Shown: piece after piece, positions 6,849-26,921 of the stretch | Position numbering within the stretch: the stretch's first letter is position 1 | How the letters are laid out: each line of letters begins with the position of its first letter | NCBI RefSeq assembly: GCF_037902255.1 | Contig: NZ_CP147990.1 | Coordinates: forward strand, 2,790,001-2,822,000 | Source of the DNA: Candidatus Electrothrix sp. GW3-4 | Lineage (GTDB): Bacteria > Desulfobacterota > Desulfobulbia > Desulfobulbales > Desulfobulbaceae | Length of the DNA stretch: 32,000 bases | Direction: 5' to 3' | Notes under the pieces: model-generated | Told to the model about the DNA's origin: nothing | Database searches by the model: none | What the model saw: the letters and a program-made list of their open reading frames with translations, nothing else | Translations under genes and position numbers: made by a program

Positions 6849-6928
6849 CTCATATTCTGAATATTTTTCCCGTTAGGGAATTTCCAAAAAATACGCTCCC
6901 CATTTTGGTATATGTTGTAAGGACAAGG

Positions 6929-6967
6929 CCCCTGTGCCTGCCCGATAAGCAAGGGCAAACACAGGGG
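6929..6967 (-). other. Imperfect long hairpin in the RND/LolA-like intergenic spacer
   Basis: cccctgtgcctgccc - gataagcaa - gggcaaacacagggg. The 15-nt arms have 13 complementary positions. The overlapping ORF 6845..7027 looks spurious. Confidence 0.4.
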
Positions 6968-7039
6968 TTCGCTCCTACGGTGCTTGACATAACGGGTAAG
7001 ATATTTCTTGTTAAATTCCTTACTCAAGCGCAGACAATA

Positions 7040-9379
7040 TTACTCGCTTAGTGCAGACAGAGATGCCCTCGGACGATCGAATTGTAACAGCAGGACAGGA
7101 AGAAAGAAGAAATCCAGCAACAGGGCAAAGCTGATCGTAATCGCGGTCATACTGCCCATATGTGCGTTGATCTGAAAACCTGAGCAGGCAAGGACAATAA
7201 AGCCCCCAACCAGGGTGACCGTCGAGATCCACATGGGCGCAGCAACGGTCCGAAAGGCAAAACGGACTGCGTCTTCCGGAGACATCGCATGTTCGGTCCG
7301 CCCCCGCTGATATTTAGCGAGAAAATGAACGGTATCATCCACGACAATCCCCATGGTCATAGCGATCAGGACAGAGACGGCCAGCCCGACCTGACCAACA
7401 GCATATCCCCACACGCCAAAGCCCATAAATGCCGGAGCAATATTGGGAAGCAGGCTCAGCAGACCGAGTTTGAAGCTCCGCAGCACAACAATCATAATGA
7501 GCGAAATCAGGGTCAGGGCAAGCAATGAAGAAGAAAGCATGGATCTGATATTACGGGCCGAGAGGTGAGAATACATCATGGTCACCCCGGAACCATGCGT
7601 ATACATGGTGGGCGGGGCATTCTTGGTGAGCCAGTCCCGGCCTGCGCTTTCCAACTCGCGCATCTCCCGGGTACTTGCCCCAACCAGGGAGACCGTCATC
7701 CTCGTAGAGGATTTATCCACATTGATCCGGTCGTTTAAATCCAGGCCAAAAGGCAGATTCATCTCATAGAGCAGGAGGTATTGGGCAGCCAGATTCCGTT
7801 CTTCCGGGAGCCTGTAATAGGCCGGGTCGTTCCCATGCATATTGCGATTGATCTGCTTCATGATATCCGTCATAGTATACACATGGCGAACATATTTTTG
7901 CTGACGAAACCAGTTGGCAAAGGCCTCAACGGTTCGCTGATATTCCGGTTCATTGATGCCCCCCTCCTCTCCTGACTGAAGATCCCAATCAATGATATAC
8001 ATACCGGTCAGATTCTTCGCAGTAAAATCTGTGGCTCGGCGAAAATCAAAACGCGGGCTGAAAAACTTGATAAAATCATCATCCAGTTGGATACGGGGGA
8101 TCCCTGTGGTGACGCCGATGACCATGATGATCATTGCCCAAAAGATGGCGAAACGCCTGCGTATAATCATATCGGCAAGACGTTCATAGATATGTGCCGT
8201 TGAGGTTGAGGACAGTTGAGCCGCCTTAAGGGGCAGAACTGCAACCAGGGCGGGCAGGAGAAGCACTGAATAAAAAAAGGCGCTCATGATACCCATTGCC
8301 ACCACATTGCCAAGATCGCGGAACGGCGGGGCATCGGAAAAGTTCATGGTCAGGAAGCCCACAGCAGTGGTCAGACTGGTGACCAGTACTGGCCAAAAAT
8401 TGATCCGAAGGGATTGCGCAATGGCCTGACGCCGATCAAGCCCGTTCCGCATCTGGTGAAACATCGTGGTCAGAATATGGACAGAATCGGCAACAGCCAG
8501 GGTAAGAATAATGGTCGGAGCATTGGCTGAAGCCGGATTCATAGGGATTCCCAGCCAACCAGCCAGGCCGAGTCCGGTCAGGGTAGAAAAAATAATCACC
8601 AAAAAGGTCAGGCCCATACCAAGTGCTGAACGCAAACAGATAGCCAGGATCAGCAAAAGAAGCCCGCACATGATGGGGACCAGTAGCCTGATATCCTCCT
8701 TGGCAGCCAACTCAAAGGTCGTATCGATCATCACCACTCCGGTGACGTAGATATCCAGCTGGGGATATTTTTTTTGCATCTCCGCTTGCAAGGCATAGGC
8801 AGCCTCTGCAATGGTGTCCGAGGCCTTGCCATTGTCATCCGGCTTCACCACATTGACATTTACCCCGGTGACATGACCGGTGGGCGAAATAAGGCGTCCT
8901 TGCAGCAGCGGCTCATTTAGAGCGATGTTGCGAATTTCCTCAAGTTGGCCATCCGTGAGGTGTTCTCCATTGTCCACCAGGTCTTCAACAATCAGATCGT
9001 CCCCTTCTACCTGGGTATGCTGATAGTTGGTTATGGAGTCGACCCGGCTCGAATAGGGCAGTTGCCAGGCCCGTTCTGTGAGATCCTGCACAGCACTGAG
9101 CACATCCCGGCTAAAAACATTTTGGCTCTTCGGGGCAAGGGTAAAAAAGACATTCTCAAACTTGGTATAGGTCTGTTCCAGGGCGTTAAAGGCCTGGAGT
9201 TCGGGATTGTCCTCGGAAAAGAACATCCGGCTATTACTGGAGAAGGTAAGAAAACGGGTACCATAGCCGGTTCCCGCTACAAAAAGCAGGCAAAGAAGAA
9301 TCAGCGGAATCCTGTATGTGATGACAAATCGGCCCAGCCGTGCTTCAAACATTTCCATCAGCTTGTCTTCCTTTTTCAT
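7040..9379 (-). CDS. RND superfamily permease, MMPL/HpnN-like lipid exporter
   Basis: 779 aa starting at ATG 9379. It has two repeats of one TM helix, a large periplasmic loop and about 5 TM helices. Hydrophobic blocks such as LLLILAICLRSALGMGLTFLVIIFSTLTGLGLAGWLGIP are typical of MMPL/SSD-type RND transporters. Confidence 0.85.
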   Translation of the reverse strand: MKKEDKLMEMFEARLGRFVITYRIPLILLCLLFVAGTGYGTRFLTFSSNSRMFFSEDNPELQAFNALEQTYTKFENVFFTLAPKSQNVFSRDVLSAVQDLTERAWQLPYSSRVDSITNYQHTQVEGDDLIVEDLVDNGEHLTDGQLEEIRNIALNEPLLQGRLISPTGHVTGVNVNVVKPDDNGKASDTIAEAAYALQAEMQKKYPQLDIYVTGVVMIDTTFELAAKEDIRLLVPIMCGLLLLILAICLRSALGMGLTFLVIIFSTLTGLGLAGWLGIPMNPASANAPTIILTLAVADSVHILTTMFHQMRNGLDRRQAIAQSLRINFWPVLVTSLTTAVGFLTMNFSDAPPFRDLGNVVAMGIMSAFFYSVLLLPALVAVLPLKAAQLSSTSTAHIYERLADMIIRRRFAIFWAMIIMVIGVTTGIPRIQLDDDFIKFFSPRFDFRRATDFTAKNLTGMYIIDWDLQSGEEGGINEPEYQRTVEAFANWFRQQKYVRHVYTMTDIMKQINRNMHGNDPAYYRLPEERNLAAQYLLLYEMNLPFGLDLNDRINVDKSSTRMTVSLVGASTREMRELESAGRDWLTKNAPPTMYTHGSGVTMMYSHLSARNIRSMLSSSLLALTLISLIMIVVLRSFKLGLLSLLPNIAPAFMGFGVWGYAVGQVGLAVSVLIAMTMGIVVDDTVHFLAKYQRGRTEHAMSPEDAVRFAFRTVAAPMWISTVTLVGGFIVLACSGFQINAHMGSMTAITISFALLLDFFFLPVLLLQFDRPRASLSALSE

Positions 9380-9800
9380 CGCCTATGTCAGAGTATCCGG
9401 CAGATTGCGATGTGTATATTTTTTCTACAAAGCTACCTCCTGCATAAGGATATTACAATGTTTTTTCAGACAAAAAAATTGTACAAGAAAACAGTACGAG
9501 CACATCTTCCCCGATTACCTCTCAGAAATCCTGCCCCCAAAACTTTCCTCGCTGCTTTAAACAGGATTGAGTATTAAAATTAAAACAGCCCCAAAAAAAA
9601 GACCCTGATACAATCAATTTAAACGTTCAGAAACAACACATTAGCTAGGATTCTCCTTTTAGAGAAAGAGCCCCTACGAGATGAGCAAAATCTAACTATC
9701 AGCTCTCTGGACCGGCATCTTTCTCGAACGCGGTCGAAAAACAAGAGAAGAGCAAGAGACATCATCACAACATCATAAGGTTAAAGAGAAAACAACTTCC

Positions 9801-10805
9801 TCACTCAGTCGAGTTAGAGAGAACAGGAAAGGGGTGAGCAATCTCCGCAAGAGCGACCGTCACATTGGGAAATTTCATTTTTTGTACCAGCAAAGGGCCA
9901 TTGCCAGAGCTCAGGATGGCAGCAGGTTCAGCCACGGCCCTGGCTCCGGTGACACGCAGAACAACATCTGAGCCCACGATCCCTTGAACCTGATTGAGTT
10001 GGTCCGGGCGATAAAAGTCCAGGGAAAGCCCCTGGCCATCAGTAAAGGCAAGCAGACCAGGTTCATCACTTTTCAGATCAATGGAGGCGAGCTTACACAC
10101 AGCGTCGCGGGCCAGCTTATGGGCCTGGCATGCCTGCTCCAAGGCCTCGCCGATCTCCTCTGCCGGGGTATTGCGATTACAACCGATACCTGCCACTAAG
10201 GCCTTGGGATGGAGCAAAACAGCATGACCTTTACAGTCGGTGCGGCATGTGATAAACAAATCCGCATCATCCAGTTGTTCAACAAGGACAATATCCGGGG
10301 GAAGAGGCGGGAGTGGATAGTCACTGTACAGAAAGACGGAGCCGGTATTGACCAGCTTTGCCATGACACGAATCAGGCCCTGCTTATCCTGCACCGTCAG
10401 CCCCATGTCACGGCACCAGAGATCCAAAGCAGTGTGACCGAGCACGTCGGAGGCCGTGGTGATCACTGCCTGCCCGTCGAGCAGCTCAGCGACCTTGTGG
10501 GCCAAGGCATTGCCTCCGCCCAGATGCCCGGAAAGGAGGGAGATGGCAAACTGCCCCTGCTCATCACAGACCACCACAGCCGGGTCCACGGTCTTATCCT
10601 GGAGCAAGGGGGCGATACCGCGCACCACGATACCGGTGGCCATGATACAGATCAGGCTGTCATAGTTCTGCCAGGTCTGGGAGAGGGTGCGGTAGATGCC
10701 ATCTTGGTGGGGGACAACCTCGCTTCCGGGAAGAAGGCTTGCGAGACGTTGGGCCAGCTGCTTTCCGCCCTTGGTCAGGGCGATGATGGCGGTGTGTGCG
10801 GTCAT
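9801..10805 (-). CDS. cbiG: Cobalt-precorrin-5A hydrolase CbiG
   Basis: Contains the conserved CbiG block ATGIVVRGIAPLLQDKTVDPAVVVCDEQGQFAISLLSGHLGGGNALA. The track ORF starts at GTG 10898. The internal ATG 10805 (MTAHTAIIALTKGG) matches usual CbiG N-termini, so the start is uncertain. Confidence 0.85.
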   Translation of the reverse strand: MTAHTAIIALTKGGKQLAQRLASLLPGSEVVPHQDGIYRTLSQTWQNYDSLICIMATGIVVRGIAPLLQDKTVDPAVVVCDEQGQFAISLLSGHLGGGNALAHKVAELLDGQAVITTASDVLGHTALDLWCRDMGLTVQDKQGLIRVMAKLVNTGSVFLYSDYPLPPLPPDIVLVEQLDDADLFITCRTDCKGHAVLLHPKALVAGIGCNRNTPAEEIGEALEQACQAHKLARDAVCKLASIDLKSDEPGLLAFTDGQGLSLDFYRPDQLNQVQGIVGSDVVLRVTGARAVAEPAAILSSGNGPLLVQKMKFPNVTVALAEIAHPFPVLSNSTE

Positions 10806-10937
10806 GGGAGGTGTTTTGCGATGTTTTTCATGCCCGGCGTTGAAACACCGGGCTATTTTCGGCAGTCCCTCCGGGACGCTGTTTTCCGAATGCCCCACCC
10901 CTGAAGGGAATATCCCCGGTAACGGTGGGCAGGCATC

Positions 10938-12518: not shown

Positions 12519-12929
12519 TCAGGCGCAAATTACCCTATTCTTTCTGGAGCCGCTTTCCCGTTCTTTACAAGGTAGTTTGCTGTGAAAAGTAGCGCAAGAC
12601 TTACGCCGCACTGTACTAGTCCGGGTGCCGCCCGCCATTTCGTACTCGCTGCTGTCCTTGCCGAACTTGCCCGCGACCCCGGCTAACATCCGCGATGACC
12701 ACTCATTGACTTTCTTCTCCGCCGCCTTCAGCTCATTGGCCTTATTATCCAGCAAAGCAAGCAGGGTGTTGTATTCATCAAGGATAGTTTCGGCAGCTGC
12801 GATCTCGGCTTCATAGGCGGGCAGGGTGAGCGGGCCGCCTAATGCCAGGTTCGGGTCTATCGCCTTGATGCCAGCGGCACGCTGTAGCGCCTTGACAATG
12901 ATTTTGGATGCTCTGCGTTTAAAGGCCAT
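12519..12929 (-). CDS. Hypothetical coiled-coil-like protein
   Basis: ATG 12929 is preceded by GGAGGAAAGATC. The protein starts MAFKRRASKIIVKALQRAAG and contains SEYEMAGGTR. The track ORF extends to 13082 without RBS support. No family recognised. Confidence 0.45.
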   Translation of the reverse strand: MAFKRRASKIIVKALQRAAGIKAIDPNLALGGPLTLPAYEAEIAAAETILDEYNTLLALLDNKANELKAAEKKVNEWSSRMLAGVAGKFGKDSSEYEMAGGTRTSTVRRKSCATFHSKLPCKERESGSRKNRVICA

Positions 12930-13557: not shown

Positions 13558-13673
13558 ACCCCCTTCGGGGTAGGGATATTGCAGGACGTTAACAATATGC
13601 CCAGATCCCTGAGCAGGATAAAACCCGAGCCCTGAAAGGGTTCAGGGCTAATAGCCCAAGGTCATCACCTTGG
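13558..13673 (+). repeat. Diverged copy (A) of the multi-hairpin repeat family, 22 nt upstream of DGR target 1
   Basis: Shares three hairpin modules with copies B and C. These are cccc(c)ttcgggg, ccctgaaaggg (extended here to agccctgaa/ttcagggct) and cccaaggtcatcaccttgg. The last stem carries a compensatory g>a / c>t pair relative to cccagggtcaccaccctgg. Confidence 0.6.
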
Positions 13674-13694
13674 TGTATACAATTTATAACCGTC

Positions 13695-14426
13695 ATGCAT
13701 AACGAAGAACCTACCATCCAACTCCCCTCCGGCCCGGTTATTGAACTGAGGTACGTCCAGGGCGGAAAATTTATGATGGGGGATGACAAAAGTGAATATG
13801 GTGACGAGAAGCCTGCCCATCCGGTCAGACTGTCAGATTTTTACCTCGGCAAGTTCCCGGTCACTCAGGAGGTCTGGCAGGCAGTAATGAATAACAATCC
13901 CTCCAGCTTTAAAGGTGAACACCGTCCGGTGGAAACTGTCTCCTGGGAAGATGCACAGGAGTTTCTTGCCCGGCTCAATCAGCAGACCGGCAGGGTCTTT
14001 CGTCTGCCTACAGAAGCGGAATGGGAATACGCGGCCCAAGGCGGCAGGCACAGTGAGGGGTATATCTATGCAGGCAGCGATCGATTGAAACAGGTGGGCT
14101 GGTATGAGAAAAACAGCGGCGATGAGACCCATGAGGTCGGTCTGCTGTATGACAATGAACTGGGCCTGTACGACATGAGCGGCAATGTCTGGGAGTGGTG
14201 TCAGGACTGGTTTTCCAAGGAATACTACGTAGCATGCCATCAACAGGGAACCGTGGACAATCCCCAGGGGCCTGACACCGGGTCGTACCGCGTTCTGCGC
14301 GGCGGCGGCTGGATCTACTACCCGGTGGGCTGCCGTTCCATCTATCGGAGCAGCAACCCGCCGGTGTATCGGCACCACCACATCGGCTTCCGCCTTGCCC
14401 TCCCCTCCCAGTCAGCTGGAAGCTAA
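13695..14426 (+). CDS. DGR target protein 1, FGE-sulfatase (SUMF1) / C-type-lectin-fold domain protein
   Basis: 243 aa. RLPTEAEWEYAAQGG, NVWEWCQDW and the C-terminal RVLRGGGW....GFRLA are hallmarks of the FGE/CLec fold. No signal peptide. The last 44 codons are VR1. Confidence 0.92.
   Translation: MHNEEPTIQLPSGPVIELRYVQGGKFMMGDDKSEYGDEKPAHPVRLSDFYLGKFPVTQEVWQAVMNNNPSSFKGEHRPVETVSWEDAQEFLARLNQQTGRVFRLPTEAEWEYAAQGGRHSEGYIYAGSDRLKQVGWYEKNSGDETHEVGLLYDNELGLYDMSGNVWEWCQDWFSKEYYVACHQQGTVDNPQGPDTGSYRVLRGGGWIYYPVGCRSIYRSSNPPVYRHHHIGFRLALPSQSAGS
14280..14411 (+). repeat. DGR variable repeat VR1
   Basis: 132 nt aligned without gaps to TR (offset 1762). There are 13 mismatches, all at TR adenines: 16048, 16069, 16078, 16081, 16090, 16091, 16105, 16112, 16115, 16127, 16129, 16135 and 16141. 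Confidence 0.95.
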
Positions 14427-14531
14427 TCCTGGTTTCCCGTGAGCAAAAGAGCAAGCGAGTGGAGCAACGGCTGCAAAGAGGCGAGGGACGAGCCGACAGC
14501 AACCGCAGCGTAGCGAGGCGGCAAGGGGGGT

Positions 14532-14548
14532 TCGGGGCGCAGCCCCGA
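14532..14548 (+). other. GC-rich hairpin in the conserved post-VR1 segment
   Basis: tcggggc-gca-gccccga: 7-bp stem, 3-nt loop. An identical copy lies after VR2. Confidence 0.5.
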
Positions 14549-14573
14549 TGAATTTTTTATCGGATAAGCGACA

Positions 14574-15026
14574 ATGCAAATTAAACTTTTCACCATTCCA
14601 ATCCACGGAGGAGAGCAGCTCTGTGAAGCAATGAATCGATTTCTGCGTTCCAAAAAAATCCTCCAGACAGAAAGCCGTCTTGTGAGTACTGTCGAGGGAA
14701 GTTTCTGGTGCTTTTGCATCAGATATCTTGCCGAAAATCAGCAGACAGACAAGCGAAGAAAGATTGATTACCGTGCAGTATTGGACAGCGGCAGTTTTCA
14801 ACGTTTTGCCGCAATGCGGGAAATCCGAAAAAAACTGGCGCAGCAGGAGGGCATCCCGGCATACGCTGTCTTCACCGATGCCGAGCTGGCTGAACTGGCC
14901 CGGATTGAGCACCTTACCTTGGCGGATCTGCGCGGGGTGCATGGCATTGGCGCTGCCAAGGTGGAAAAATACGGAGCGCATTTCACCGCGCAGGAGAACA
15001 ATGAAACGGGCAAGCCGACTGCTTGA
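14574..15026 (+). CDS. DGR accessory protein with C-terminal HRDC domain
   Basis: 150 aa. FAAMREIRKKLAQQEGIPAYAVFTDAELAELARIEHLTLADLRGVHGIGAAKVEKYG matches the HRDC consensus of RecQ/RNase D. The ORF overlaps the RT start by 26 nt. Confidence 0.85.
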   Translation: MQIKLFTIPIHGGEQLCEAMNRFLRSKKILQTESRLVSTVEGSFWCFCIRYLAENQQTDKRRKIDYRAVLDSGSFQRFAAMREIRKKLAQQEGIPAYAVFTDAELAELARIEHLTLADLRGVHGIGAAKVEKYGAHFTAQENNETGKPTA

Positions 15027-16038
15027 GCGGATTGCCGAGCCTGACAATCTGCGCCTGGCCTTCTGGAAGGCCCGCAAGGGCAAAAGTCTGTCCACCCAGA
15101 TGCAGGCCTATCAAAACAGGTTGGAGCACAACCTGCTTCTCCTGCGGGGACAGATTTTGTCAGGAAAAATTTCAATCGGCGCGTACTCCTGCTTTGCAAT
15201 CCATGACCCCAAGAAACGACGGATCTGCGCGGCTCCGTTCACCGAGCAAGTGCTTCATCATGCCCTGATGAATGTCTGCCATTATCATTTTGAGACAAAG
15301 CAGATCTATGATAGCTATGCCAGCCGTCCCGGCAAAGGGACCCATGCCGCAGTCAGGCGGACGCAGATGTTCTCCGGCGCCTCTTCCTGGTTTCTCAAGC
15401 TGGATGTCCGCAAGTTTTTTGCCAGCATTCATCACGGCTGCCTGAAAGAGCAACTGAGGAGGATGTTCAAGGATCATCATTTGCTTGGTCTGCTGGATAC
15501 TATTATTGACAGCTATGAAGACAGCCCCGGGCGCGGCCTGCCGATCGGCAATCTGTCCAGTCAGTATTTTGCCAATCATTATCTGGCAGGACTTGATCAT
15601 TTTATCAAAGAGCAGCTCCGCTGTCGGGCATACATCCGCTACATGGACGATATGGTCCTGTGGCATAACGACAAGAAACGGCTGAAGGAATGGCATCATC
15701 AGATCAGGGAATTCGTGCGCAACAGGCTGCAATGCGAACTGAAGCCGATCCTGCTCAACCGGACGGAACACGGGGTCCCCTTTCTCGGCTACAGAATCTT
15801 TCCCTTTCATATTCGGCTGCTGCAACGAAGCAAGGCTCGATTTATCCGAAAAATGCGGTATATTGAGCGAAAGTACCAATCCGGCGCATGGAGCGAGCAG
15901 AACTGCCAACGGCACGCCCTGCCGCTTATCGCCTTTACCGCTCTCGCCAATGCCGAGGTCTTCAGAAGAGATGTGATGCAGCGATTGCAAAACGACAGGG
16001 CATCGGACGTGGAAAAAGGAGACGGTTCATTGTCATAA
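15001..16038 (+). CDS. DGR reverse transcriptase
   Basis: ATG 15001 is preceded by AGGAGA. Sequence features are MKRASRLLERIAEPDNLRLAFWKARKGK, LPIGNLSSQYFANHYL (the DGR-specific [I/L/V]GxxxSQ motif) and YIRYMDDMVLW (the catalytic YxDD box). The track start at 14728 is an upstream alternative-codon extension. Confidence 0.93.
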   Translation: MKRASRLLERIAEPDNLRLAFWKARKGKSLSTQMQAYQNRLEHNLLLLRGQILSGKISIGAYSCFAIHDPKKRRICAAPFTEQVLHHALMNVCHYHFETKQIYDSYASRPGKGTHAAVRRTQMFSGASSWFLKLDVRKFFASIHHGCLKEQLRRMFKDHHLLGLLDTIIDSYEDSPGRGLPIGNLSSQYFANHYLAGLDHFIKEQLRCRAYIRYMDDMVLWHNDKKRLKEWHHQIREFVRNRLQCELKPILLNRTEHGVPFLGYRIFPFHIRLLQRSKARFIRKMRYIERKYQSGAWSEQNCQRHALPLIAFTALANAEVFRRDVMQRLQNDRASDVEKGDGSLS

Positions 16039-16041
16039 AAG

Positions 16042-16173
16042 GGGTCGAACCGCGTTCTGCGCGGCGGCAGCTGGATCAACAACCCGGTGAACTGCCGTTC
16101 CATCAATCGGAACAACAACCCGCCGGAGAATCGGAACCACAACATCGGCTTCCGCCTTGCCCTCCCCTCCCAG
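16042..16173 (+). repeat. DGR template repeat (TR)
   Basis: Starts 4 nt after the RT stop. It contains 29 adenines, mostly in AAC/AAT codons when read in the VR frame (GSNRVLRGGSWINNPVNCRSINRNNNPPENRNHNIGFRLALPSQ). The 3' part (16145-16171) is adenine-free and identical in TR, VR1 and VR2. Confidence 0.95.
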
Positions 16174-16272
16174 CTCACGGGAAAGCCGGATAGCTTCCAC
16201 TGAACAGACAATGATCCTGTTCCCGGCCTGGACGGCGGGACAAAAAGGCAGCCGGGTTGCCGGTTGCATCAG

Positions 16273-16318
16273 GCGGCAGTGTCAGTAGCCCTGGGCGAAA
16301 GCTCTGCCGCTGTTTTTC
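16273..16318 (+). terminator. Candidate intrinsic terminator / 3' structure of the RT-TR transcript
   Basis: gcggcag (16273-16279) pairs with ctgccgc (16304-16310), with an inner agc/gct pairing, followed by tgtttttc. An 8-bp hairpin gcagccgg-gttg-ccggttgc lies just upstream at 16248-16267. Confidence 0.4.
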
Positions 16319-16338
16319 ATCAGACAAAGGATAGCGTG

Positions 16339-17070
16339 ATGGACAACGACAATCTTATCATCCAACTCCCCTCCGGCCCGGTTATTGAACTGAGGTACGT
16401 CCAGGGCGGAAAATTTATGATGGGGGATGACAACGCGAAAGACGATAACGAGAAACCGGCTCATCCGGTCAGACTGTCAGATTTTTACCTCGGCAAGTTC
16501 CCGGTCACTCAGGAGGTCTGGCAGGCAGTAATGAATAACAATCCCTCCAGCTTTAAAGGTGAACACCGTCCGGTGGAAACTGTCTCCTGGGAAGATGCAC
16601 AGGAGTTTCTTGCCCGGCTCAATCAGCAGACCGGCAGGGTCTTTCGTCTGCCTACAGAAGCGGAATGGGAATACGCGGCCCAAGGCGGCAGGCACAGTGA
16701 GGGGTATATCTATGCAGGCAGCGATCGATTGAAACAGGTGGGCTGGTATGAGAAAAACAGCGGCGATGAGACCCATGAGGTCGGTCTGCTGTATGACAAT
16801 GAACTGGGCCTGTACGACATGAGCGGCAATGTCTGGGAGTGGTGTCAGGACTGGTTTTCCAAGGAATACTACGTAGCATGCCATCAACAGGGAACCGTGG
16901 ACAATCCCCAGGGGCCTGACACCGGGTCGCACCGCGTTCTGCGCGGCGGCAGCTGGCTCAGCTACCCGGTGGACTGCCGTTCCATCGATCGGCTCATCAG
17001 CCCGCCGGAGTATCGGGACCACGACCTCGGCTTCCGCCTTGCCCTCCCCTCCCAGTCAGCTGGAAGCTAA
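16339..17070 (+). CDS. DGR target protein 2, FGE-sulfatase / C-type-lectin-fold domain protein (paralog of target 1)
   Basis: 243 aa from ATG 16339 (MDNDNLIIQLPSGPV). The protein is identical to target 1 between HPVRLSDFY and GPDTGS. The C-terminus is VR2. The track start at 16264 is an unsupported extension. Confidence 0.92.
   Translation: MDNDNLIIQLPSGPVIELRYVQGGKFMMGDDNAKDDNEKPAHPVRLSDFYLGKFPVTQEVWQAVMNNNPSSFKGEHRPVETVSWEDAQEFLARLNQQTGRVFRLPTEAEWEYAAQGGRHSEGYIYAGSDRLKQVGWYEKNSGDETHEVGLLYDNELGLYDMSGNVWEWCQDWFSKEYYVACHQQGTVDNPQGPDTGSHRVLRGGSWLSYPVDCRSIDRLISPPEYRDHDLGFRLALPSQSAGS
16924..17055 (+). repeat. DGR variable repeat VR2
   Basis: 132 nt aligned without gaps to TR (offset 882). There are 14 mismatches, all at TR adenines: 16048, 16075, 16079, 16081, 16090, 16105, 16111, 16112, 16115, 16118, 16129, 16135, 16141 and 16144. 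Confidence 0.95.
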
Positions 17071-17172
17071 TCCTGGTTTCCCGTGAGCAAAAGAGCAAGC
17101 GAGTGGAGCAACGGCTGCAAAGAGGCGAGGGACGAGCCGACAGCAACCGCAGCGTAGCGAGGCGGCAGGGGT

Positions 17173-17189
17173 TCGGGGCGCAGCCCCGA
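17173..17189 (+). other. GC-rich hairpin in the conserved post-VR2 segment
   Basis: The same tcggggc-gca-gccccga hairpin as at 14532-14548. Confidence 0.5.
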
Positions 17190-17258
17190 TGAATTTTTCT
17201 TCTCACGAATGGGTGGTATGAATCAGCTCAGAATCGTCACCCTGGTTATCCAACCGAT

Positions 17259-17381
17259 GCTTGGGATGGTATCCCAAGCTGAGATGCAGAACCCCTGCGG
17301 GGTAACGGGCAGGTGCTACATCCGAACCAAGCAAAGGAACCCTGAAAGGGTTCCTGATATCAGCCCAGGGTCACCACCCTG
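17259..17381 (+). repeat. Multi-hairpin repeat copy B, 36 nt upstream of the Y1 transposase gene
   Basis: Hairpins in order: gcttgggat-ggt-atcccaagc, cccc-tgc-gggg, gaaccct-gaa-agggttc and cccaggg-tcacca-ccctg. By eye about 85-90 percent identical to copy C, in the same orientation. Confidence 0.75.
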
Positions 17382-17416: not shown

Positions 17417-17872
17417 ATGCCGCAATCACTGAGCAGGATCTTTCTCCATCTCATCTTTTCGACCAGGAAACGAATCCCCTTCCTTGTTGATGCCGAACTG
17501 CGCGACCATACCCATGCCTATCTCGCTGAGGTCTGCCGTCAGTTGGGGGTACTGCCTCTCCGTATCAACGGCACGGAAGATCATGTCCATATCCTCTGCG
17601 CCATGTCCCGAACCCGGACTGTCGCCGATCTGGTCAAGGAGCTGAAGCGAACCTCGTCCAAATGGCTTAAGCAGCAGGGGGAAGAATTGCTCTGTTTCTA
17701 TTGGCAGGGCGGCTATGGCGCGTTTTCCGTCAGCCCGTCCCATGTCGATGAGGTGGAACGGTACATTGCCTGCCAGCCGGAGCACCATAAGACCCTATCG
17801 TTCCAGGATGAATTCCGACGGATTCTGAAAAAATACGGAGTGCAATACGATGAACAATATGTCTGGGACTGA
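17417..17872 (+). CDS. IS200-like / REP-associated tyrosine transposase (RAYT, Y1 HUH family)
   Basis: 151 aa. It starts MPQSLSRIFLHLIFSTRKR, carries the HUH motif EDHVHIL and the catalytic-Tyr region YWQGGYGAFSV. Size and motifs fit IS200 TnpA/RAYT. Confidence 0.85.
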   Translation: MPQSLSRIFLHLIFSTRKRIPFLVDAELRDHTHAYLAEVCRQLGVLPLRINGTEDHVHILCAMSRTRTVADLVKELKRTSSKWLKQQGEELLCFYWQGGYGAFSVSPSHVDEVERYIACQPEHHKTLSFQDEFRRILKKYGVQYDEQYVWD

Positions 17873-17922: not shown

Positions 17923-18049
17923 GCTTGGGATGGTATCCCAAGCTGAGATACAGAACCCCCGCGGGGTAAAAAGGACAGGTGTCACATCCAAACCAAGCAG
18001 AGGAACCCTGAAAGGGTTCTGGAGATCAGCCCAGGGTCACCACCCTGGG
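17923..18049 (+). repeat. Multi-hairpin repeat copy C, 34 nt upstream of the Roco gene
   Basis: Same four hairpin modules as copy B. The track ORF 17930..20269 and ORF 17209..17490 both translate through the repeats (MVSQAEIQNP / MVSQAEMQNP). That explains their similar but spurious N-termini. Confidence 0.75.
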
Positions 18050-18082: not shown

Positions 18083-20269
18083 ATGAACATCATCAAACCG
18101 ATAATCATCCAACAGATCGAAGAGCAGCTCCAGCTTACCCTGCAGCCTGCACCATCCCTGCCTACGCCCCTGCGCGGCCTGATGACCTATAAAGAAAATC
18201 AGCCCAAATACCTGCTGGACGAACAGGACCGGCTCATCGGCCTCAATCTGGCCGCAACCGAGCTGGATGATGCCCGCTGGCAGCAGATTGTCATCCTGCT
18301 GGATAAACATGGCGTTCAGCTCCAGGCCCTGAACCTGTGCGAGAATCAGTTAAAGGACTTTGTTCCGCCACCGGGCATTGCGGTCATGACCGATCTTGAC
18401 CTGGATGACAACCCGCTAGAATATCCATCACCGGAAACTGTTCAGCAAGGAAAAGCTGCTGTGCTTCGTTTCCTGCAAGTTGCCGCCGCCCAGGGTACAC
18501 GCGAGGCCTTTGAAGTCAAAATGCTCATTGTCGGCGAAGGCGAGACCGGCAAGACCACGCTCTGGAACCTACTCCAGACCCCTGACCATCCAGTGCCGGA
18601 TGAGGACCAAAAAAGAACGGTCGGTATCCAGATCAAAGAAGGCTGGGAGTTCCCCCATCTCGACCATCCAGACACCCCGTTCTTTATCAATCTCTGGGAT
18701 TTCGGCGGCCAGGAGATCCAATACATGACCCACCAGTTCTTCCTCACCCGCCGCTCCTTCTATGTGCTGCTTGCCGACGGGAGAAAGGAGGCTGCCAATT
18801 TTTCCTATTGGCTGGACATCATCAGCCTGCTGGGCCGCGACCCGGATCAGGACGGCAGATTACCTTTGCTGGTGGTTGTGAATGAAAAGGGCAATACAAA
18901 CCCAACCCTTCCCTACGATTCCAACACGGTGAAGGAACAGTATCCCGGCCTGGAGATCATCAGAAAGCATATTGACTTTGCCGAGAAAGGCGGACGGCTT
19001 GATGATCTGCGGGATAAAATCAAAAAGATCCTCTGCCGCAATATCGCCCACCTGCCGATCACCATTCCCAAGCTCTGGGACGAGGTACGGAATGAACTCA
19101 AGGTACTGCGGCAGGAGGTCAACCATATTGACCACCAGAAGTTCTTGGATATCTGCAACCGGCACGGCATCAGCGACCGCCAGCAGCAGGACGACCTGAG
19201 CCAATTCTTCCATGACCTCGGGCTGATCCTCCATTTTCACGAAGGAATATTGGAAGATTTTATTGTTCTCAATCCAAGCTGGGCGGTGAACGCGATCTAT
19301 ACCATCTTGGAAAGCGAGGATGCCACATATAATCAGGGCCGTTTCAACCAAGAGGTCCTTAAATCTATTTGGAACAAAAAGGGCTTCTCCATTGCCGAAC
19401 AGGGCAAGCTGCTCAACCTGATGCTGAAGGACGGGCTGGAGGTCTGCTTCAAAGCCAAAGAGCAGGGCGATGAAATCTTCATTGCGCCCCAGCTCTTGCC
19501 CGAGGAGGCCCCTGAAGAGGCGCAATGGGAGGATAGCCCGGAGACCCTGCGCTACATCTATCATTACCCCTTTATGCCCAAGGGATTGATCGGGCGGCTG
19601 ATTGTTCGCCTGCATGAGGACATCGAAGACTGCTGCGACACGGATCAATGTCATCTGGACTGCCGAAAGATGGTCTGGAAAAATGGTATGTATCTGCGTA
19701 AAGCCCACTGCCGGGCACGGGTGCGTTATATCAATGACCGCAAGCAGGGACGGGAGATTATCCAGCTTGAGGTACAGGGGCCGGAGGTTGAAGATCGTCG
19801 ATATGTTTTGCGAGATATCCGGGAAGAATTAGAAGAAATACACAAGAAGCCCTTTTCCTCACTGCGTTTCTTTGAGAAGATCCCCTGCTGCTGCGATGAG
19901 TGCAAAAAATCCGTCATGCCCCATGAATACGACAAGGACGACCTGCAACGGATGAAGAAAAAGGATGTCGAGGAAATGCGCTGTATGCAGAGCGGCATGA
20001 ACGTCCCGATCCGCCAGCTTTTGGATGGGGTGTTTCAGGAAAGGGAACTTTGTGCGGAGCCGAAGCTACAGGAAAGCAGCACACCGGTGACAGTAAACGT
20101 TTATGCCAACCAGCATAAAGAATCATCGGGTGAATCAGCTGATGCCAGCAAGAAGCCTTGGTGGAAACGCTGGTGGCTTGGTATCGTCGGAGTTCTTGGG
20201 GCTATCGGGGTAGTTCTTGCCAACTTGGTGAAGATTATAGAGGCGATAGAAAAATTCCTTGGCCCATAA
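18083..20269 (+). CDS. Roco-type GTPase: LRR - Roc (Ras-like GTPase) - COR, with a C-terminal Cys cluster and TM anchor
   Basis: 728 aa from ATG 18083 (MNIIKPIIIQQ). LRR-like units include LQALNLCENQL and LDLDDNPLEYP. The P-loop is IVGEGETGKTTL and the switch II motif is WDFGGQE. The long following region is consistent with a COR domain. It ends with PCCCDECKK and KKPWWKRWWLGIVGVLGAIGVVLANLV. Confidence 0.8.
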   Translation: MNIIKPIIIQQIEEQLQLTLQPAPSLPTPLRGLMTYKENQPKYLLDEQDRLIGLNLAATELDDARWQQIVILLDKHGVQLQALNLCENQLKDFVPPPGIAVMTDLDLDDNPLEYPSPETVQQGKAAVLRFLQVAAAQGTREAFEVKMLIVGEGETGKTTLWNLLQTPDHPVPDEDQKRTVGIQIKEGWEFPHLDHPDTPFFINLWDFGGQEIQYMTHQFFLTRRSFYVLLADGRKEAANFSYWLDIISLLGRDPDQDGRLPLLVVVNEKGNTNPTLPYDSNTVKEQYPGLEIIRKHIDFAEKGGRLDDLRDKIKKILCRNIAHLPITIPKLWDEVRNELKVLRQEVNHIDHQKFLDICNRHGISDRQQQDDLSQFFHDLGLILHFHEGILEDFIVLNPSWAVNAIYTILESEDATYNQGRFNQEVLKSIWNKKGFSIAEQGKLLNLMLKDGLEVCFKAKEQGDEIFIAPQLLPEEAPEEAQWEDSPETLRYIYHYPFMPKGLIGRLIVRLHEDIEDCCDTDQCHLDCRKMVWKNGMYLRKAHCRARVRYINDRKQGREIIQLEVQGPEVEDRRYVLRDIREELEEIHKKPFSSLRFFEKIPCCCDECKKSVMPHEYDKDDLQRMKKKDVEEMRCMQSGMNVPIRQLLDGVFQERELCAEPKLQESSTPVTVNVYANQHKESSGESADASKKPWWKRWWLGIVGVLGAIGVVLANLVKIIEAIEKFLGP

Positions 20270-20750: not shown

Positions 20751-20916
20751 TCCAGCGGCGGATTACGCAGCCGGAATAACCAGCGCATAGCCTTGCAGAA
20801 CTCTGCTCTTTTCCTTTCTCCTTTCCTTCTTGTTTTTTCGTACAAAACACTTTACCCTTATAGTCATAGGTAACATCTGTTCCCAATTTCCCAAACATAC
20901 TGCTCTGGAGGATACC

Positions 20917-21534
20917 GTGGAGTTAGCACAACAGGAATGCTACACATGGCAGGATTACAGGAAAATGCCTGACAATGAACGTTACGAGCTGATATCCGGC
21001 ACCTTCTATGCCATGAGCCCGGCACCATCACGCTTTCATCAGGAAATCAGCATGGAGCTTGCCCGGCAACTCAGCAACTATCTTCTTGATCACTCCTGCT
21101 CGGTCTATCCTGCCCCCTTTGATGTCCGCCTTCCGACTGCCCATGAATCTTCCGACACAAGCACTACTGTGTTGCAACCAGATATCTCCATTATCTGTGA
21201 TGCGAAAAAACTGGATCAACACGGCTGTGTCGGTGCCCCGGACTTTATTGCTGAAATCAGCTCTCCTTCCACAGCTGCCCATGATAATATCACCAAAACA
21301 GCCCTCTATGAGCAGTTTGGAGTTCGAGAATATTGGATCATTCACCCGTTGGACAGGTTAGTCACGGTCCGCCTTCTCGGTCAGGACAACCTTTTTCTTC
21401 CGCCTCATATCCATGAGGGCAAAGGCATGCTCGCGTTGACCATACTCCCTGAACTTGAGATCGATCTGGACCTCCTGTTCCGAAGCATTACGCTCAACGA
21501 ACAGACTCTATTTTCCATAAAAAAAAGCGACTGA
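20917..21534 (+). CDS. Uma2 family (DUF820) endonuclease
   Basis: GTG 20917 is preceded by GGAGGA. Sequence features are YTWQDYRKMPDNERYELISGTFYAMSPAP, PDISIICD and APDFIAEISSPST....K...Y...GVREYWIIHP, the characteristic Uma2 pattern. Confidence 0.8.
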   Translation: MELAQQECYTWQDYRKMPDNERYELISGTFYAMSPAPSRFHQEISMELARQLSNYLLDHSCSVYPAPFDVRLPTAHESSDTSTTVLQPDISIICDAKKLDQHGCVGAPDFIAEISSPSTAAHDNITKTALYEQFGVREYWIIHPLDRLVTVRLLGQDNLFLPPHIHEGKGMLALTILPELEIDLDLLFRSITLNEQTLFSIKKSD

Positions 21535-22999: not shown

Positions 23000-25900
23000 T
23001 TACGCCTCAACCGGCTCATCAGCCGTGACCGTGCCAAAGGCGGAGATCTGATCCATAATCTGCTCATTGGTAAACCCGCCCATAGAGATGGCAAAGGTCG
23101 GACAATGGCTGGAACAGATTCCACAGGCCTTACAGGAGGCCGCAATAGTCTGGGCCTTGCGCTTCTTATCTACCTTGATCATCTCAATAGCGCCAAAGGG
23201 ACAAAGGCTGGCGCAGATACCGCAACCAATACATTTTTCCTGCTCAACCACCGAGACAATAGGATCAATGCTGACCTTGCCCTTGACCAAGGGGATGGCC
23301 GCCTTGGCCGCAGCAGCCTGGGCCTGGGCAATGGTCTCGTCCACCGGCTTAGGACCGTGGGCCAAGCCGCAGACATAGACACCAGAGACCGGCAGTTCCA
23401 CCGGCCGCAGTTTGACATGGGCCTCCAGGAAGAAACGATCATCGGTGAGCGGGGCCTTGAGCAGCTTGCTCAGATCCTCGGTGCCGTCCGGGACAATGCC
23501 CACAGACAGGGCCACCATATCCGGGCTCATCTGCACTTCTTCCTGCAACAGGCTGTCAAAGAACTTCACAGTCAGCTTCTTACCCTTTGCCGATGCAGAG
23601 ATCTGTGGTTTCTGATCCAACTCGTAGGGGATGAAGATCACACCCTTGAGACGGGCCTCACGATAGGCGTCCTCGGCATAGCCATAGGTCCGCATATCCC
23701 GATAGAGGACGATCACCTGGCTGGCAGGATTCAGTTCCTTGATCTTGAGCGCATTCTTGACCGCATGGTTACAGCAGACCTTGGAACAATAGTTCAGATC
23801 ATCACCCCGTGAACCAGCGCACTGGACCATAATGATGGACTCCGGTGCCTTGCTATCCGCAGCCAGCTGCTGCTCCAGCTCGGTCTGGGTAACCACCTTG
23901 TCGTTCTCCTCCAGCAGATAGCCCTCTGGACGGTGCTCATGCCCACCAGTGGCCAAGACCACCACGCCATGATCCACTGTATGTTCGGCACCACCCTCTT
24001 CTGCAATCACAGAAGAGAAGTTGCCAACAAAGCCGGAAAAGTCCTTGAGCTCGGCCTTGGTCAGGACATCAACATGCTGATTCGCCTTAACCTCGGCCAC
24101 CAGCTTGTGCAGATGCGAGGCCGTCTCGTGGGCATCCAGGGTATGATTCAACAGCCCCAGACTGCCGCCCAGCCGTTCGCCCTTCTCTACCAGCACAGAG
24201 TCAAAGCCCTGCCCTGCCAGATTCAAGGCCACGGTCATGCCAGCAATACCCGCCCCGATGATCAGGGCCTTAGGGGTCACCGGCACGGTCTGCTCCGGCA
24301 GAGGTTTCATGCCTCTGGCCTTGGCAACCGCCATGCGCAGGAGATCCTGCGATTTATCCGTGGCCGCTTCCGGCTCACCAGCATGGACCCAGGAACATTG
24401 ATCGCGAATATTGACCATCTCGATCAGGCAGCGGTTCAGACCTGCATCGCGCAGGGTCTCCTGGAAGAGCGGCTCATGGGTTCGCGGTGAACAGGCGGCA
24501 ATAACCACCCGGTTCAGATTATGCTCAACAATGCGATCCTTGAGGGTCTTGACAGCATCTGCGGAACAGGAATAGAGGGAATCGGTATGGTAGACAACCC
24601 CTTCCATGCCCTCAACAGAGTCTTCCACCTTATGAACATCCACCACCGAGGCGATATTAATACCGCAATGGCAGACAAAGACCCCGATCCGGACCTCTTC
24701 ATCCATGGGCTTCTCGTCCGGGTAGGACTTATGGACAATACCCAGTCCGCGCTGTTTTTCCAGCATCCCAGCTACAATACCGGCTGTTGCCGAGGCCTGG
24801 GTAACTGACTCGGGAATATCCTTGGGGCCCTGGAAGGCACCAGCCACCACCACCCCTTCCACGCTGGTGTTCAGCGGCGAGAAGGTATCTGTTTTGGCAA
24901 AATCATAGTGATTCAGCTCAATGCGGGTTATATCGGCAATACCCTGGGCATCCTTGGGAGCTTCCAGGCCCACAGAGAGGACCACCATATCATGGGGCTT
25001 AAACTCATGCCTGCCATCCAGGGTGGAGTAGGTCAGCTGGAGGTGATTCTCCCAAGGGGTCACACCGGCGACCTTGGCCCGGACAAACTTCACGCCCATG
25101 GCCTCGGCCCGTTCCCTGGCCTTATCAAAATCCTTACCCTGGGTACGGATATCCATGTAATAGACGGTGATATCCACTTCCGGGTCATGCTCTTTAGCCA
25201 CCATTGCTTCCTTGATGGCGTACATACAGCAAACCGAAGAGCAATAGCCGTTATCGCAGCCCAGATCTCGGGAACCCACGCATTGGATAAAGGCCAGAGA
25301 CTTGGGATGACGTCCGTCGGAAAAGCATTTCACCTCGCCGAGGAAGGGGCCAGAGGCCGTGGTCATGCGCTCAAACTCAACAGCGGTCACCACGTCAGGA
25401 TGCTTGCCGTAGGAGTACTTCTCCAGGGTGGTATCATCAATCCTGCCGAATCCCGGCGAGAGCACCATGGCCCCGACCTTGATATCTACCTCTTCCGGCT
25501 GCTGACTGAAGTCAATGGCATGACTCTGGCAGACCGGCACGCAGATCTGGCAGGTATCATGCTGCACAGACATACAGGCCGAAGGATCAATATAATAGGT
25601 CGCAGGCACGGCCTGGGCATAGTCAATATGAATAGGACGGGTCAGAGACAGTCCTTCATTGTACGCATCTGTCAGATGCTTGGGACAGTATTGGGTACAG
25701 AGCCCGCAGGCCGTACACTTGTCCGCATCAATATAACGAGGGCGTTTCCGTACCTTGACGGTAAAATCACCCGGTTTTCCGTCCAATGCCAACAGATCAG
25801 CATTGGTTATCATCTCTATGTTTGGAGACCGACCGGCCTCTACCAGCTTAGGTGCAAGTATTCAGAGAGAGCAGTCATTGGTCGGAAAGGTCTTATCGAG

Positions 25901-26050
25901 CTGGGCCATAACCCCGCCCACAACCGGTGCTTTTTCCAGCAGGTAGACGTAATAACCAAGTTCAGTCAGGTCAAGGGCGGTTTGTATCCCGGCGATACCG
26001 CCGCCCACGACCATCACTGATCCGGCCCTGTGTTCCATTCCTTTTCCCAT
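23000..26050 (-). CDS. hdrA: Heterodisulfide reductase subunit A-like flavoprotein (long form, about 1016 aa), selenocysteine-containing (TGA at 25862-25864 read as Sec)
   Basis: Track ORFs 25862..26050 and 23000..25813 are in frame. The N-terminal FAD motif is [17 protein letters not shown]. The junction reads [35 protein letters not shown], which aligns with the HdrA motif TNDCSMCIL.PK. A second Rossmann motif ([10 protein letters not shown]) and 4Fe-4S CxxCxxCxxxCP motifs lie downstream. ATG 26050 is preceded by GGAGA. Confidence 0.85.
25825..25840 (-). promoter_or_regulatory. Candidate SECIS hairpin for the hdrA UGA
   Basis: Minus-strand RNA is gaggcc-GGUC-ggucuc, 6 bp including one G-U pair. 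It starts 21 nt after the UGA. The GGUC apical loop is the same as in the E. coli fdhF SECIS. Confidence 0.55.
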
Positions 26051-26130
26051 TGCAATCTCCAGTGTTTATTGATTGGTTCAACGCTTTTTTATTCAGTTCT
26101 CAACCGAGTAAGCCAAGAGTAATGTGAACG

Positions 26131-26606: not shown

Positions 26607-26921
26607 ACAATGACCTTCTATAAATTTTTTAAAAATAGACTGTTATGGCTTCCAGTATTGAGAGGATATTCAGCTTGTCCTTCTCAAACATAGATCACCT
26701 CTTTCTCAAGGTAATCCCTACTATGTCATTTTATTTCAACATTACTTCAAATCATTATAGTGTTATTGGTGCGTAAACGCACCCTACCCGGCTTAACAAG
26801 AATTTACCTGAAACTTCTTCATAAAATTTAACAACTACTTATTCCTGTAGACCAAACAGCCCCATCATCTTGCGACGACAGGGCTGTATTCTACAAAGCA
26901 AAACCGCACTGTCAGCCCTGA

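Follow-up and report, generated by a model that had tools for sequence, protein, structure and literature searches.

The 32,000-nucleotide window analysed here (positions 2,790,001 to 2,822,000 of contig NZ_CP147990.1) is chromosomal DNA of the cable bacterium Candidatus Electrothrix sp. GW3-4, a filamentous, multicellular member of the Desulfobulbaceae, and it harbors a diversity-generating retroelement (DGR). The parts of this element all lie on the plus strand, in the order target gene 1 (13695-14426), an accessory gene for an HRDC-domain protein (14574-15026), the reverse transcriptase (RT) gene (15001-16038), the template repeat (TR; 16042-16173) and target gene 2 (16339-17070). An initial annotation of this DNA, made from the letters alone, had placed the same components at these coordinates on one strand, and listing of the open reading frames (ORFs) together with repeat finding reproduces all of them. 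Repeat search and alignment likewise bear out a TR of 132 nt just 3' of the RT stop codon and two paralogous targets that each carry a variable repeat (VR). Three features that were absent from that annotation form the second half of this account, namely a structured RNA 3' of the TR, inverted copies of the TR flank next to the VRs and a neighboring gene for a Roc-COR GTPase.

The RT is a 345 aa protein with a Pfam RVT_1 domain and is 100% identical to an NCBI protein of Ca. Electrothrix sp. GW3-4. The two motifs previously read from it, IGNLSSQ, which fits the motif-4 signature [I/L/V]GxxxSQ of DGR RTs, and YMDD, which fits YxDD, are both present in the translation. Its start codon, ATG 15001, overlaps the HRDC ORF by 26 nt. 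The best match in the PDB is 8ub7, a 328-aa reverse transcriptase, with an E-value of 3.3e-40 over residues 2-285; we take this entry to be bRT, the RT of the DGR of the Bordetella phage BPP-1. Group II intron and retron-type RTs among the PDB sequences match the window RT at about 1e-12, which makes 8ub7 the better match by 27 orders of magnitude. Given this, the likelihood that the RT belongs to a retron, a group II intron or a defence-associated system, with the repeats being incidental, is negligible. Such an origin could appeal to weak, sub-threshold matches to group II intron, retron and defence-associated RT (DRT) models in NCBIfam and PADLOC and to the designation 'retron-type RT' in some source annotations, but the NCBIfam matches lie far under the curated cut-offs (80 versus 300 bits for the group II intron model, 56 versus 235 for retron St85 and 57 versus 200 for Drt3a), no intron or retron RNA family of Rfam is found in the window, and the relation between the TR and the VRs is adenine-specific. 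The RT thus groups with the DGR RTs, as the initial annotation had expected. Sequence comparison further places it in a cellular rather than a viral lineage of these enzymes, because the viral DGR RTs found are no more than 46% identical to it.

The 132-nt repeat occurs in three copies in the window, of which the middle one, starting at the 4th nt past the RT stop codon, is taken as the TR. The outer two are VR1 (14280-14411, plus strand), which covers codons 196-239 of target 1, and VR2 (16924-17055, plus strand) in target 2. The TR/VR relation persists on computational alignment, and all 27 mismatches to the TR, 13 in VR1 and 14 in VR2, fall at TR adenines; with 29 adenines among 132 nt, the hypergeometric probability of such adenine-only mismatches is 2e-10 for VR1 and 3e-11 for VR2. 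The two VRs differ from each other at 15 positions, and 18 of the 29 TR adenines vary in at least one of them. The TR shares the reading frame of both targets. Its adenines are distributed over codon positions 1, 2 and 3 as 15, 14 and 0, and its 18 adenine-containing codons comprise nine AAC, two AAT and seven others. Substitutions at these adenines cannot generate stop codons, and the coding capacity amounts to about 1.4e17 proteins per VR. At their 3' ends the TR, VR1 and VR2 share 28 identical nt (GGCTTCCGCCTTGCCCTCCCCTCCCAG), directly after which the sequences diverge; this 3' end resembles an initiation of mutagenic homing (IMH) site and is a candidate for one.

The two targets are part of a duplicated unit of gene and 3' flank, in which 13691-14557 matches 16335-17198. 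The differences between the copies are unevenly spread: 19 of 125 nt at the 5' end (13691-13815 versus 16335-16459), synonymous changes included, 1 of 464 nt in the middle segment, 15 of 132 nt in the VR, all at adenine-templated sites, and none of 112 nt in the 3' flank. From 13816 on, the copies are thus virtually identical, the VR excepted. This pattern suggests either gene conversion of the 3' three-quarters of the unit or a mosaic origin. Since the copies are near-identical save at the adenine-templated VR sites, homing would have taken place later than their last homogenization, and the DGR is apparently active. It is improbable that we are dealing with a recently inactivated or fossil element, whose parts look intact but which no longer undergoes mutagenic homing, so that the VR differences are historical. 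A fossil would fit with the lack of a direct sign of current activity, with a terminator-like hairpin and T-run that separates target 1 from the HRDC-RT genes (14532-14557, plus strand, with an identical copy after target 2 at 17173-17198) and with our finding no sigma-70-like promoter on the plus strand, a result that is uninformative for this phylum. It is at odds with the intactness of all ORFs, including the catalytic motifs, with a TR that is perfectly conserved outside its adenines, with the preservation of the RNA element and both VR flanks described below and, above all, with the evidence that homing followed homogenization.

Each target encodes a stand-alone protein of 243 aa with the C-type lectin (CLec)/formylglycine-generating enzyme (FGE) fold. 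They match the Pfam FGE-sulfatase family (PF03781) with E-values of 1.6e-49 (target 1) and 6e-50 (target 2) and are 90% identical to each other. The start of target 2 is most likely ATG 16339 and not an upstream TTG, because homology to target 1 begins there. The best PDB sequence match of target 1 is TvpA, the variable protein of the Treponema denticola DGR (2y3c, E-value 5e-35). TvpA is also the best fold match (TM-score 0.85, root-mean-square deviation 2.1 Å) of an AlphaFold (AF2) model of target 1 computed from 47 homologues (mean predicted local distance difference test score, pLDDT, 92; predicted TM-score 0.91). The VR aligns with the C-terminal variable segment of TvpA, which agrees with the CLec/FGE-type structure foreseen for the targets. 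A single cysteine is seen, on reading the sequence, in the region of FGE's catalytic cysteine pair, and the targets are predicted to be binding modules rather than enzymes.

The initial annotation had also stated that the targets lack signal peptides. Both have short acidic N-termini (MHNEEP in target 1 and MDNDNL in target 2), and neither contains a hydrophobic segment, the maximal 19-residue Kyte-Doolittle mean being 0.27 for target 1 and 0.62 for target 2. The orthologous targets of two metagenomic relatives (L002 and L003 in the survey described below) likewise have short acidic N-termini and no hydrophobic stretch. Furthermore, an in-frame upstream extension of target 1 is impossible, and no secretion genes adjoin the DGR. 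Together these observations support a cytoplasmic location, and they speak against the targets being exported or surface-associated for adhesion or cell-cell contact, like the lipoproteins TvpA and LdtA. We regard export as very improbable, even though TvpA, the nearest solved relative, comes from T. denticola, where the DGR diversifies lipoproteins, and a DGR target of another cable bacterium has a signal-peptide-like N-terminus (MKKIIFSLCLCLLPSLSAGQ). The latter protein, from Ca. Electronema sp. JC (L001, 5710-7431), is 573 aa long and combines leucine-rich repeats (LRRs), a coiled coil and a CLec domain; after the TR of that locus there are only decayed CLec fragments (8984-9502). An exported-type target in Electronema and cytoplasmic-type targets in Electrothrix imply that one type of DGR serves both within the cable bacteria.

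Homologues of the RT with 52-72% identity are found in other cable bacteria and chiefly in filamentous Bacteroidota (Saprospiraceae and Lewinellaceae), with further ones in a Nitrosomonas metagenome-assembled genome (MAG) and in a marine gammaproteobacterial MAG; the short CLec family itself recurs in several Electrothrix and Electronema genomes. We surveyed 83 loci of this clade (L001-L083). Almost everywhere among them a full-length homologue of the HRDC protein is encoded directly upstream of the RT, with the 26-nt overlap recurring in related loci, and a short CLec gene precedes it. In about 70 loci, a TR of some 132 nt begins 10-60 nt past the RT stop codon and has essentially adenine-only mismatches to one to three VRs. 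By this common architecture the window belongs, as a typical case, to a large and coherent family.

The HRDC accessory protein has 150 aa and a pI of 9.05, and its match to PF00570 (E-value 2.7e-16 over residues 75-138) confirms that the ORF overlapping the RT start was correctly recognized. Its AF2 model (pLDDT 83) comprises a confidently modelled N-terminal domain with a β-α-β-β arrangement (residues 1-52), for which no significant PDB match was found, and the HRDC domain at about residues 66-141, which resembles the HRDC domain of RecQ (1wud, TM-score 0.79). Avd, the accessory protein of most DGRs, is absent, as had been noted earlier, in that no small ORF at 11.7-17.5 kb has a Pfam or PDB match. 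An ORF on the minus strand (orfX, 12522-12929), whose product is basic and helical-looking, was considered as an Avd and rejected, since nothing similar to it was found in Pfam or the PDB and 83 other loci contain no homologue. With an HRDC-domain gene adjoining the RT within the cassette, the element has the gene content of 'Architecture C', the HRDC-containing DGRs, which account for 14 of 372 elements, about half of them without avd, and for which the Treponema DGR serves as representative (Wu et al. 2018, PMC5758913). The T. denticola element resembles the one studied here in that the HRDC gene overlaps the RT start (by 47 bp there and 26 nt here), in its TvpA-like FGE/CLec target with a C-terminal VR and in its chromosomal location with no phage genes nearby. 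It differs in having the order TR-HRDC-RT and lipoprotein targets, whereas the element of the window has its TR behind the RT, encodes CLec-only targets that lack a signal peptide and is linked to a Roc-COR GTPase gene. The TvpA-like target hints, indirectly, that the RT may also belong to the clade of the Treponema DGR RT.

Alignment of the related loci revealed strong conservation downstream of the TR, where we delineate a structured RNA of about 145 nt (16172-16316, plus strand). It is described by a covariance model, R1, constructed from 16 sequences and a structure worked out by hand, which scores 133 bits in the window. The element begins with a fold-back beside the TR that is formed by helices P0 (16175-16177/16201-16203) and P1 (16180-16186/16193-16198) and is overlapped at its end by an invariant GAACAG (16202-16207). 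There follow a variable hairpin, P2 (16221-16227/16234-16240), a CAAAAAGG run (16241-16248), a second variable hairpin, P3 (16249-16253/16262-16266), and a long hairpin, P4 (16272-16289/16295-16311), which contains conserved AGUAG and CGAA internal-loop motifs and is trailed by a U-run. R1 yields 80 matches at 37-137 bits. Nearly all related loci contain a single full-length copy, which is encoded on the same strand as the RT and follows directly on the TR. A saprospiracean locus (L072) has two copies (7158-7308 and 9675-9825), and in the Nitrosomonas locus (L010) the element (366-508) does not follow the RT but precedes it by about 4 kb, upstream of the Roc-COR gene.

Covariation statistics were taken from an alignment made with the covariance model (A6); an alignment made with MAFFT only (A4) scrambled the variable hairpins. 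Standard pairs fill 91.8% of the cells, versus 72.5% in column shuffles and 30-52% when the partners are slid by 1-3 columns. Compensatory changes occur in 31 of the 33 pairs, and the covariation score of 0.578, versus 0.228, was reached by none of 500 shuffles. Independently of this, RNAalifold applied to the MAFFT alignment recovers compensatory changes in 15 of 16 pairs. Rfam contains no family resembling the element. Two other pairings were tried and discarded: a UCCC/GGGA hairpin that would join the end of the TR to its flank, taken from the single-sequence minimum free energy fold, shows no consistent compensatory changes in other loci (A4), and a template:primer duplex in which the 3' end of the TR would pair with the CAAAAAGG run fits the window (GCCUU/AAGGC) and fails in L013. 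In 80 viral DGR loci, just 2 of which have an HRDC gene, R1 gives weak matches only (at most 22 bits). The weak full-length ones, at 15-22 bits, are in L125 (3852-3974), L104 (3876-3983) and L088 (5179-5293); two viral-locus matches are situated directly upstream of the RT, which is the place of the TR-RT spacer in canonical DGRs, and in one HRDC-bearing locus the match is downstream of the RT. These viral matches may reflect distant homology with the spacer RNA of the BPP-1 type or may be due to chance. In BPP-1 itself, the RNA downstream of the TR envelops the bRT-Avd complex and primes cDNA synthesis in cis, and the conservation of such TR-adjacent RNA was surveyed for Avd-containing DGRs only (Handa et al. 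2024).

The first part of this RNA has a counterpart at the targets. Directly behind VR1 (14412-14443, plus strand) and VR2 (17056-17087, plus strand) stand approximately 32 nt, TCAGCTGGAAGCTAATCCTGGTTTCCCGTGAG, that correspond in reverse complement to the first 30 nt past the TR (CTCACGGGAAAGCCGGATAGCTTCCACTGA), the stretch of the P0/P1 fold-back; at VR1, where the local alignment score is 22, the inverted copy spans the stop codon of the target. When 87 VRs were compared with the TR flank of their own locus in reverse complement, the mean local alignment score was 15.4, versus 8.6 for the TR flanks of other loci, 6.7 for the own flank in direct orientation and 5.9 for shuffled sequence, and the cognate flank ranked first among 67 for 52 of the 87. 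The boundaries are equally regular. The inverted homology starts at the first nt past the TR/VR identity in 60 of 61 pairs and lies at most 4 nt from the VR boundary in 52 of them; GAACAG begins at a distance of 28 nt from the TR in 51 of the 61, and the homology ends between -1 and +3 nt from it in 52. This inverted arrangement is kept in nearly all VRs of the clade, remote second targets included.

In about 34% of DGRs, the VR is followed by a GC-rich hairpin or cruciform with a 4-nt GRNA loop, and in BPP-1 the sequences just downstream of the VR, with such a GC-rich cruciform, are required for homing (Guo et al. 2011). No hairpin of this type is present after the VRs of the window, the inverted TR-flank copy occupying its place, and the mean folding energy of the VR-flank DNA, computed for two segments, is at the level of shuffled sequence (-3.2 vs -3.2 and -2.8 vs -2.8 kcal/mol). 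As far as comparison of sequences goes, the conserved feature at the VR flank is complementarity to the TR flank and not a cruciform of the BPP-1 type. A CAAAA(A/G) run occurs both after the inverted copies at the VRs (14444-14452, ...GTGAGCAAAAG) and after P2 in the RNA (16241-16248, GGGACAAAAAGG), at both places in the window and in most related loci. The run may be a motif that a protein recognizes in both places, and it recalls the 'stem-loop followed by adenosines' of the BPP-1 RNA.

In light of these features, we propose the following course of homing. The HRDC-RT-TR transcript, whose expression may depend on read-through past the first terminator-like hairpin (this ends 16 nt short of the HRDC start codon), would terminate at the P4 hairpin and U-run. 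Its structured part would be bound by the RT, with the basic HRDC protein helping in place of Avd. Synthesis of cDNA would be primed by the P0/P1 fold-back beside the TR, near the invariant UGA/ACAG (at about 16203-16204), and adenines would be miscopied in the process. The resulting chimera of RNA primer and cDNA would be co-linear with the minus strand of the target, such that its RNA part could pair with the VR flank and its cDNA with the VR, and this pairing would dock and orient the VR replacement. For BPP-1, pairing of an RNA primer with the VR 3' end has been proposed and integration has been called unanswered (Naorem et al. 2017).

The inverted flank could alternatively be a by-product and not a recognition signal, if primer RNA were occasionally copied into the target during repair, leaving a footprint, while targeting required no more than the homology of TR and VR together with the GC-rich 3' segment that is identical in both. 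A chimera of RNA and cDNA that is repaired in would regenerate exactly the arrangement observed, and the failure of the flanks to form DNA hairpins more stable than shuffles is in keeping with this. Such an origin is nevertheless rather unlikely in our estimate, given that homing of BPP-1 requires the sequences just downstream of the VR (Guo et al. 2011) and that the arrangement has been kept in nearly all VRs of the clade, even in the remote second targets. Footprint and recognition signal imply one and the same chimeric intermediate.

The proposed course, with the inverted flank as a recognition signal, invites comparison with the BPP-1 element (mtd-avd-TR-brt). The two share the adenine-specific signature of mutagenic retrohoming, homologous RTs and a structured RNA directly 3' of the TR. 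They differ in that the element of the window has an HRDC protein in place of Avd, a TR located 3' of the RT and an inverted TR-flank copy after the VR where BPP-1 has its GC-rich cruciform with a 4-nt loop; moreover, it resides in a cellular host and diversifies cytoplasmic targets, whereas the BPP-1 element belongs to a phage and acts on a tail fibre.

Downstream of target 2, on the plus strand, lies a gene (18083-20269) for a GTPase with LRR-like, Roc, COR-A and COR-B regions, the last three recognized by Pfam, followed by a Cys-rich segment and a C-terminal transmembrane helix (residues 701-719), by which the protein is predicted to be membrane-anchored. The ORF as called mechanically begins at 17930, inside a REP-like repeat, and alignment to orthologues points to ATG 18083 (MNIIKP...) as probably the true start. 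In the metagenomic relatives L002 and L003, orthologues with 59-64% identity are encoded directly upstream of target 1, in a chromosomal context that differs from that of the window, and the components have diverged in step (Roc-COR 59-64%, RT about 70%, HRDC protein 66% and targets 60-67% identity). Of 31 related loci whose sequence extends 6 kb or more to either side of the RT, 20 have a Roc-COR gene on the same strand. In related loci the end of this gene is often followed, after 20-50 nt, by a CLec gene with a VR that matches the TR. Pfam analysis of 10 related Roc-COR proteins found LRRs, Roc and COR-A in all 10 and COR-B in 8, combined with variable effectors: TIR in four, CHAT in two, a caspase domain in one, the effector-associated domain EAD11 in one and nothing in two. 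Thus, a core of LRR, Roc and COR with variable effectors does occur next to the DGR in related loci.

These contextual connections make the Roc-COR protein a probable functional partner of the targets. The opposite view, under which the GTPase is an independent conflict-system gene that happens to lie in a variable region while the CLec proteins act alone, is one we doubt, though it has a good deal to draw on. Fusions of Roc-COR to CLec, considered as Rosetta-stone evidence, do not occur in about 30 loci, where the genes are always separate; 11 of the 31 well-flanked loci have no Roc-COR gene; the gene order in the window differs and is interrupted by a transposase; and filamentous Bacteroidota possess many Roc-COR paralogues (Kaur et al. 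2021, PMC8195603). A coincidence accounts poorly for the shared strand in 20 of 31 loci and the frequent spacing of 20-50 nt before VR-bearing CLec genes, for the continued linkage and parallel divergence of the cable-bacterial orthologues in a different chromosomal context, and for the DGR-linked combinations of AP-GTPases with FGE-sulfatase (FGS) domains that have been described.

The interruption in the window consists of an IS200-like Y1 transposase gene, similar to those of the REP-associated tyrosine transposases (17417-17872, plus strand; PF01797, E-value 6e-22), which lies between target 2 and the Roc-COR gene. A repeat search shows it to be flanked by REP-like (repetitive extragenic palindromic) direct repeats of about 123 nt each (17259-17381 and 17923-18047), with palindromic units (GAACCCTGAAAGGGTTC). 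The sole further copy of the unit in the window is found at 13597-13665, just upstream of target 1, and REP-like sequences therefore bracket the DGR cassette. This arrangement may account for the position of the Roc-COR gene differing from that in L002 and L003. The end of the locus had been set at 17198, which does coincide with the end of the duplicated unit of target and 3' flank; the functional locus probably extends as far as the Roc-COR gene, to 20269. Beyond it, at 20830-21534, a putative endonuclease of the Uma2 family (PF05685) matches the PADLOC candidate defence family PDC-S03 (1e-50), which suggests that the DGR and the Roc-COR gene are located within a small defence-island-like stretch. 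The wider surroundings are of a housekeeping nature. On one side of the DGR are an MMPL/LolA-like pair (6033-9379) and CbiG (9801-10898), an ordinary metabolic context, and on the other is the carbon monoxide dehydrogenase/acetyl-CoA synthase operon of the Wood-Ljungdahl pathway (23000-31679, minus strand), with a large iron-sulfur/flavin adenine dinucleotide oxidoreductase beside it. There are no phage genes, tRNA genes or Rfam families in the window.

The initial annotation had regarded the element as departing from the phage-tail or surface-display paradigm and as pointing to a diversified binding function inside the cell. Its structural assembly of the DGR and the cytoplasmic CLec targets hold up; the novelty does not, as published DGRs already include ones of the HRDC type, ones with the TR 3' of the RT, ones with several targets and, in multicellular bacteria, ones with cytoplasmic targets. 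Architectures with the TR after the RT have been listed, and multiple targets occur in about 15% of DGRs (Wu et al. 2018). Cytoplasmic CLec targets of multicellular bacteria have been interpreted as intracellular, hypermutable antigen sensors, short CLec-only targets being noted in clade 5A (Dore et al. 2024, PMC10907252). Such targets and the conflict systems of multicellular bacteria were also described by Kaur et al. (2020, 2021; PMC7159879, PMC8195603), the latter study already including LRR-AP-GTPase-COR proteins with variable effectors and DGR-tied NTPase-FGS systems. What the window contains is thus of a known kind: a cellular DGR of the HRDC type that resides in a multicellular bacterium and diversifies cytoplasmic CLec targets.

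By host, targets and neighborhood, it resembles the clade 5 DGRs of Dore et al. and the NTPase-FGS systems of Kaur et al., as these have in common with it a multicellular filamentous host, cytoplasmic CLec targets and, in the loci related to the window, an NTPase switch accompanied by TIR, caspase, CHAT or EAD effectors. The NTPase-FGS systems are delimited by a CLec domain fused to an NTPase in one polypeptide; here the Roc-COR protein, an AP-GTPase, is encoded apart from the CLec proteins. The accessory protein also differs, being of the HRDC type here and a four-helix Avd in the systems of Kaur et al. (2021). The main text of Dore et al. (2024) does not mention Roc, GTPases or LRRs, and we found no mention of the split, two-gene form of Roc-COR and CLec with an HRDC-type DGR in the literature consulted on the topic, nor any link between DGRs and cable bacteria or Electrothrix in the searchable literature.

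Taken together, we are fairly confident that the locus is a chromosomal, cellular HRDC-type DGR that diversifies the C-terminal ligand-binding face of two cytoplasmic CLec paralogues, operating broadly by the homing mechanism set out above and to the following end. The diversified CLec proteins would act as intracellular binders or sensors together with the membrane-anchored LRR-Roc-COR GTPase, as an NLR-like (nucleotide-binding, leucine-rich repeat receptor-like) conflict system of the filament. Several points weigh on the other side. The lack of signal peptides was judged by hydropathy alone, and the Electronema relative, with its signal-peptide-like LRR-CLec target, has no Roc-COR gene nearby. 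Ongoing VR turnover was looked for in other assemblies and no VR variants were obtained: a 1645-bp Logan contig with an identical RT breaks at the repeats, and the 90% protein cluster of target 1 has only two members. The structural support for the RNA element is comparative only. Folded as a single sequence, the element shows no gain in stability over shuffles (z -0.56), and the covariation alignment was fitted to the structure of the model, which favors that structure, though the margins are large. The priming nucleotide and the RNA-DNA pairing are likewise drawn from comparative sequence alone. Finally, the Roc-COR gene of the window is located downstream of target 2, behind the IS200-like insertion, and its product has no effector domain recognized by Pfam and no PADLOC match.

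A more specific form of the proposal, put forward tentatively and with somewhat more doubt than belief, combines RNA-guided choice of targets through the P0/P1 fold-back with a role of the CLec-only proteins as detachable sensor subunits of LRR-Roc-COR (ROCO) death-effector switches, which would amount to a split NLR-like receptor whose ligand-binding module is hypermutable. If this were true, any gene followed by the tag of about 30 nt would be a programmable DGR target, and the VR-flank signature might serve as a minimal targeting tag for engineering. The locus-specific inverted match between TR flank and VR flank also bears on how the cDNA of a DGR finds the VR and integrates there, and it provides a concrete, testable prediction. 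The clade of about 80 loci reveals a conserved, covarying RNA beside the TR in DGRs that have no Avd.

For the organisms themselves, the locus adds cable bacteria, which are multicellular and electrogenic, to the organisms that carry cellular DGRs whose targets are intracellular. ROCO-type switches are relatives of human LRRK2 and DAPK, and the recurrent pairing of these DGRs with Roc-COR GTPases bearing TIR, CHAT or caspase domains would extend the idea of the 'hypermutable antigen sensor' to switches of this type.

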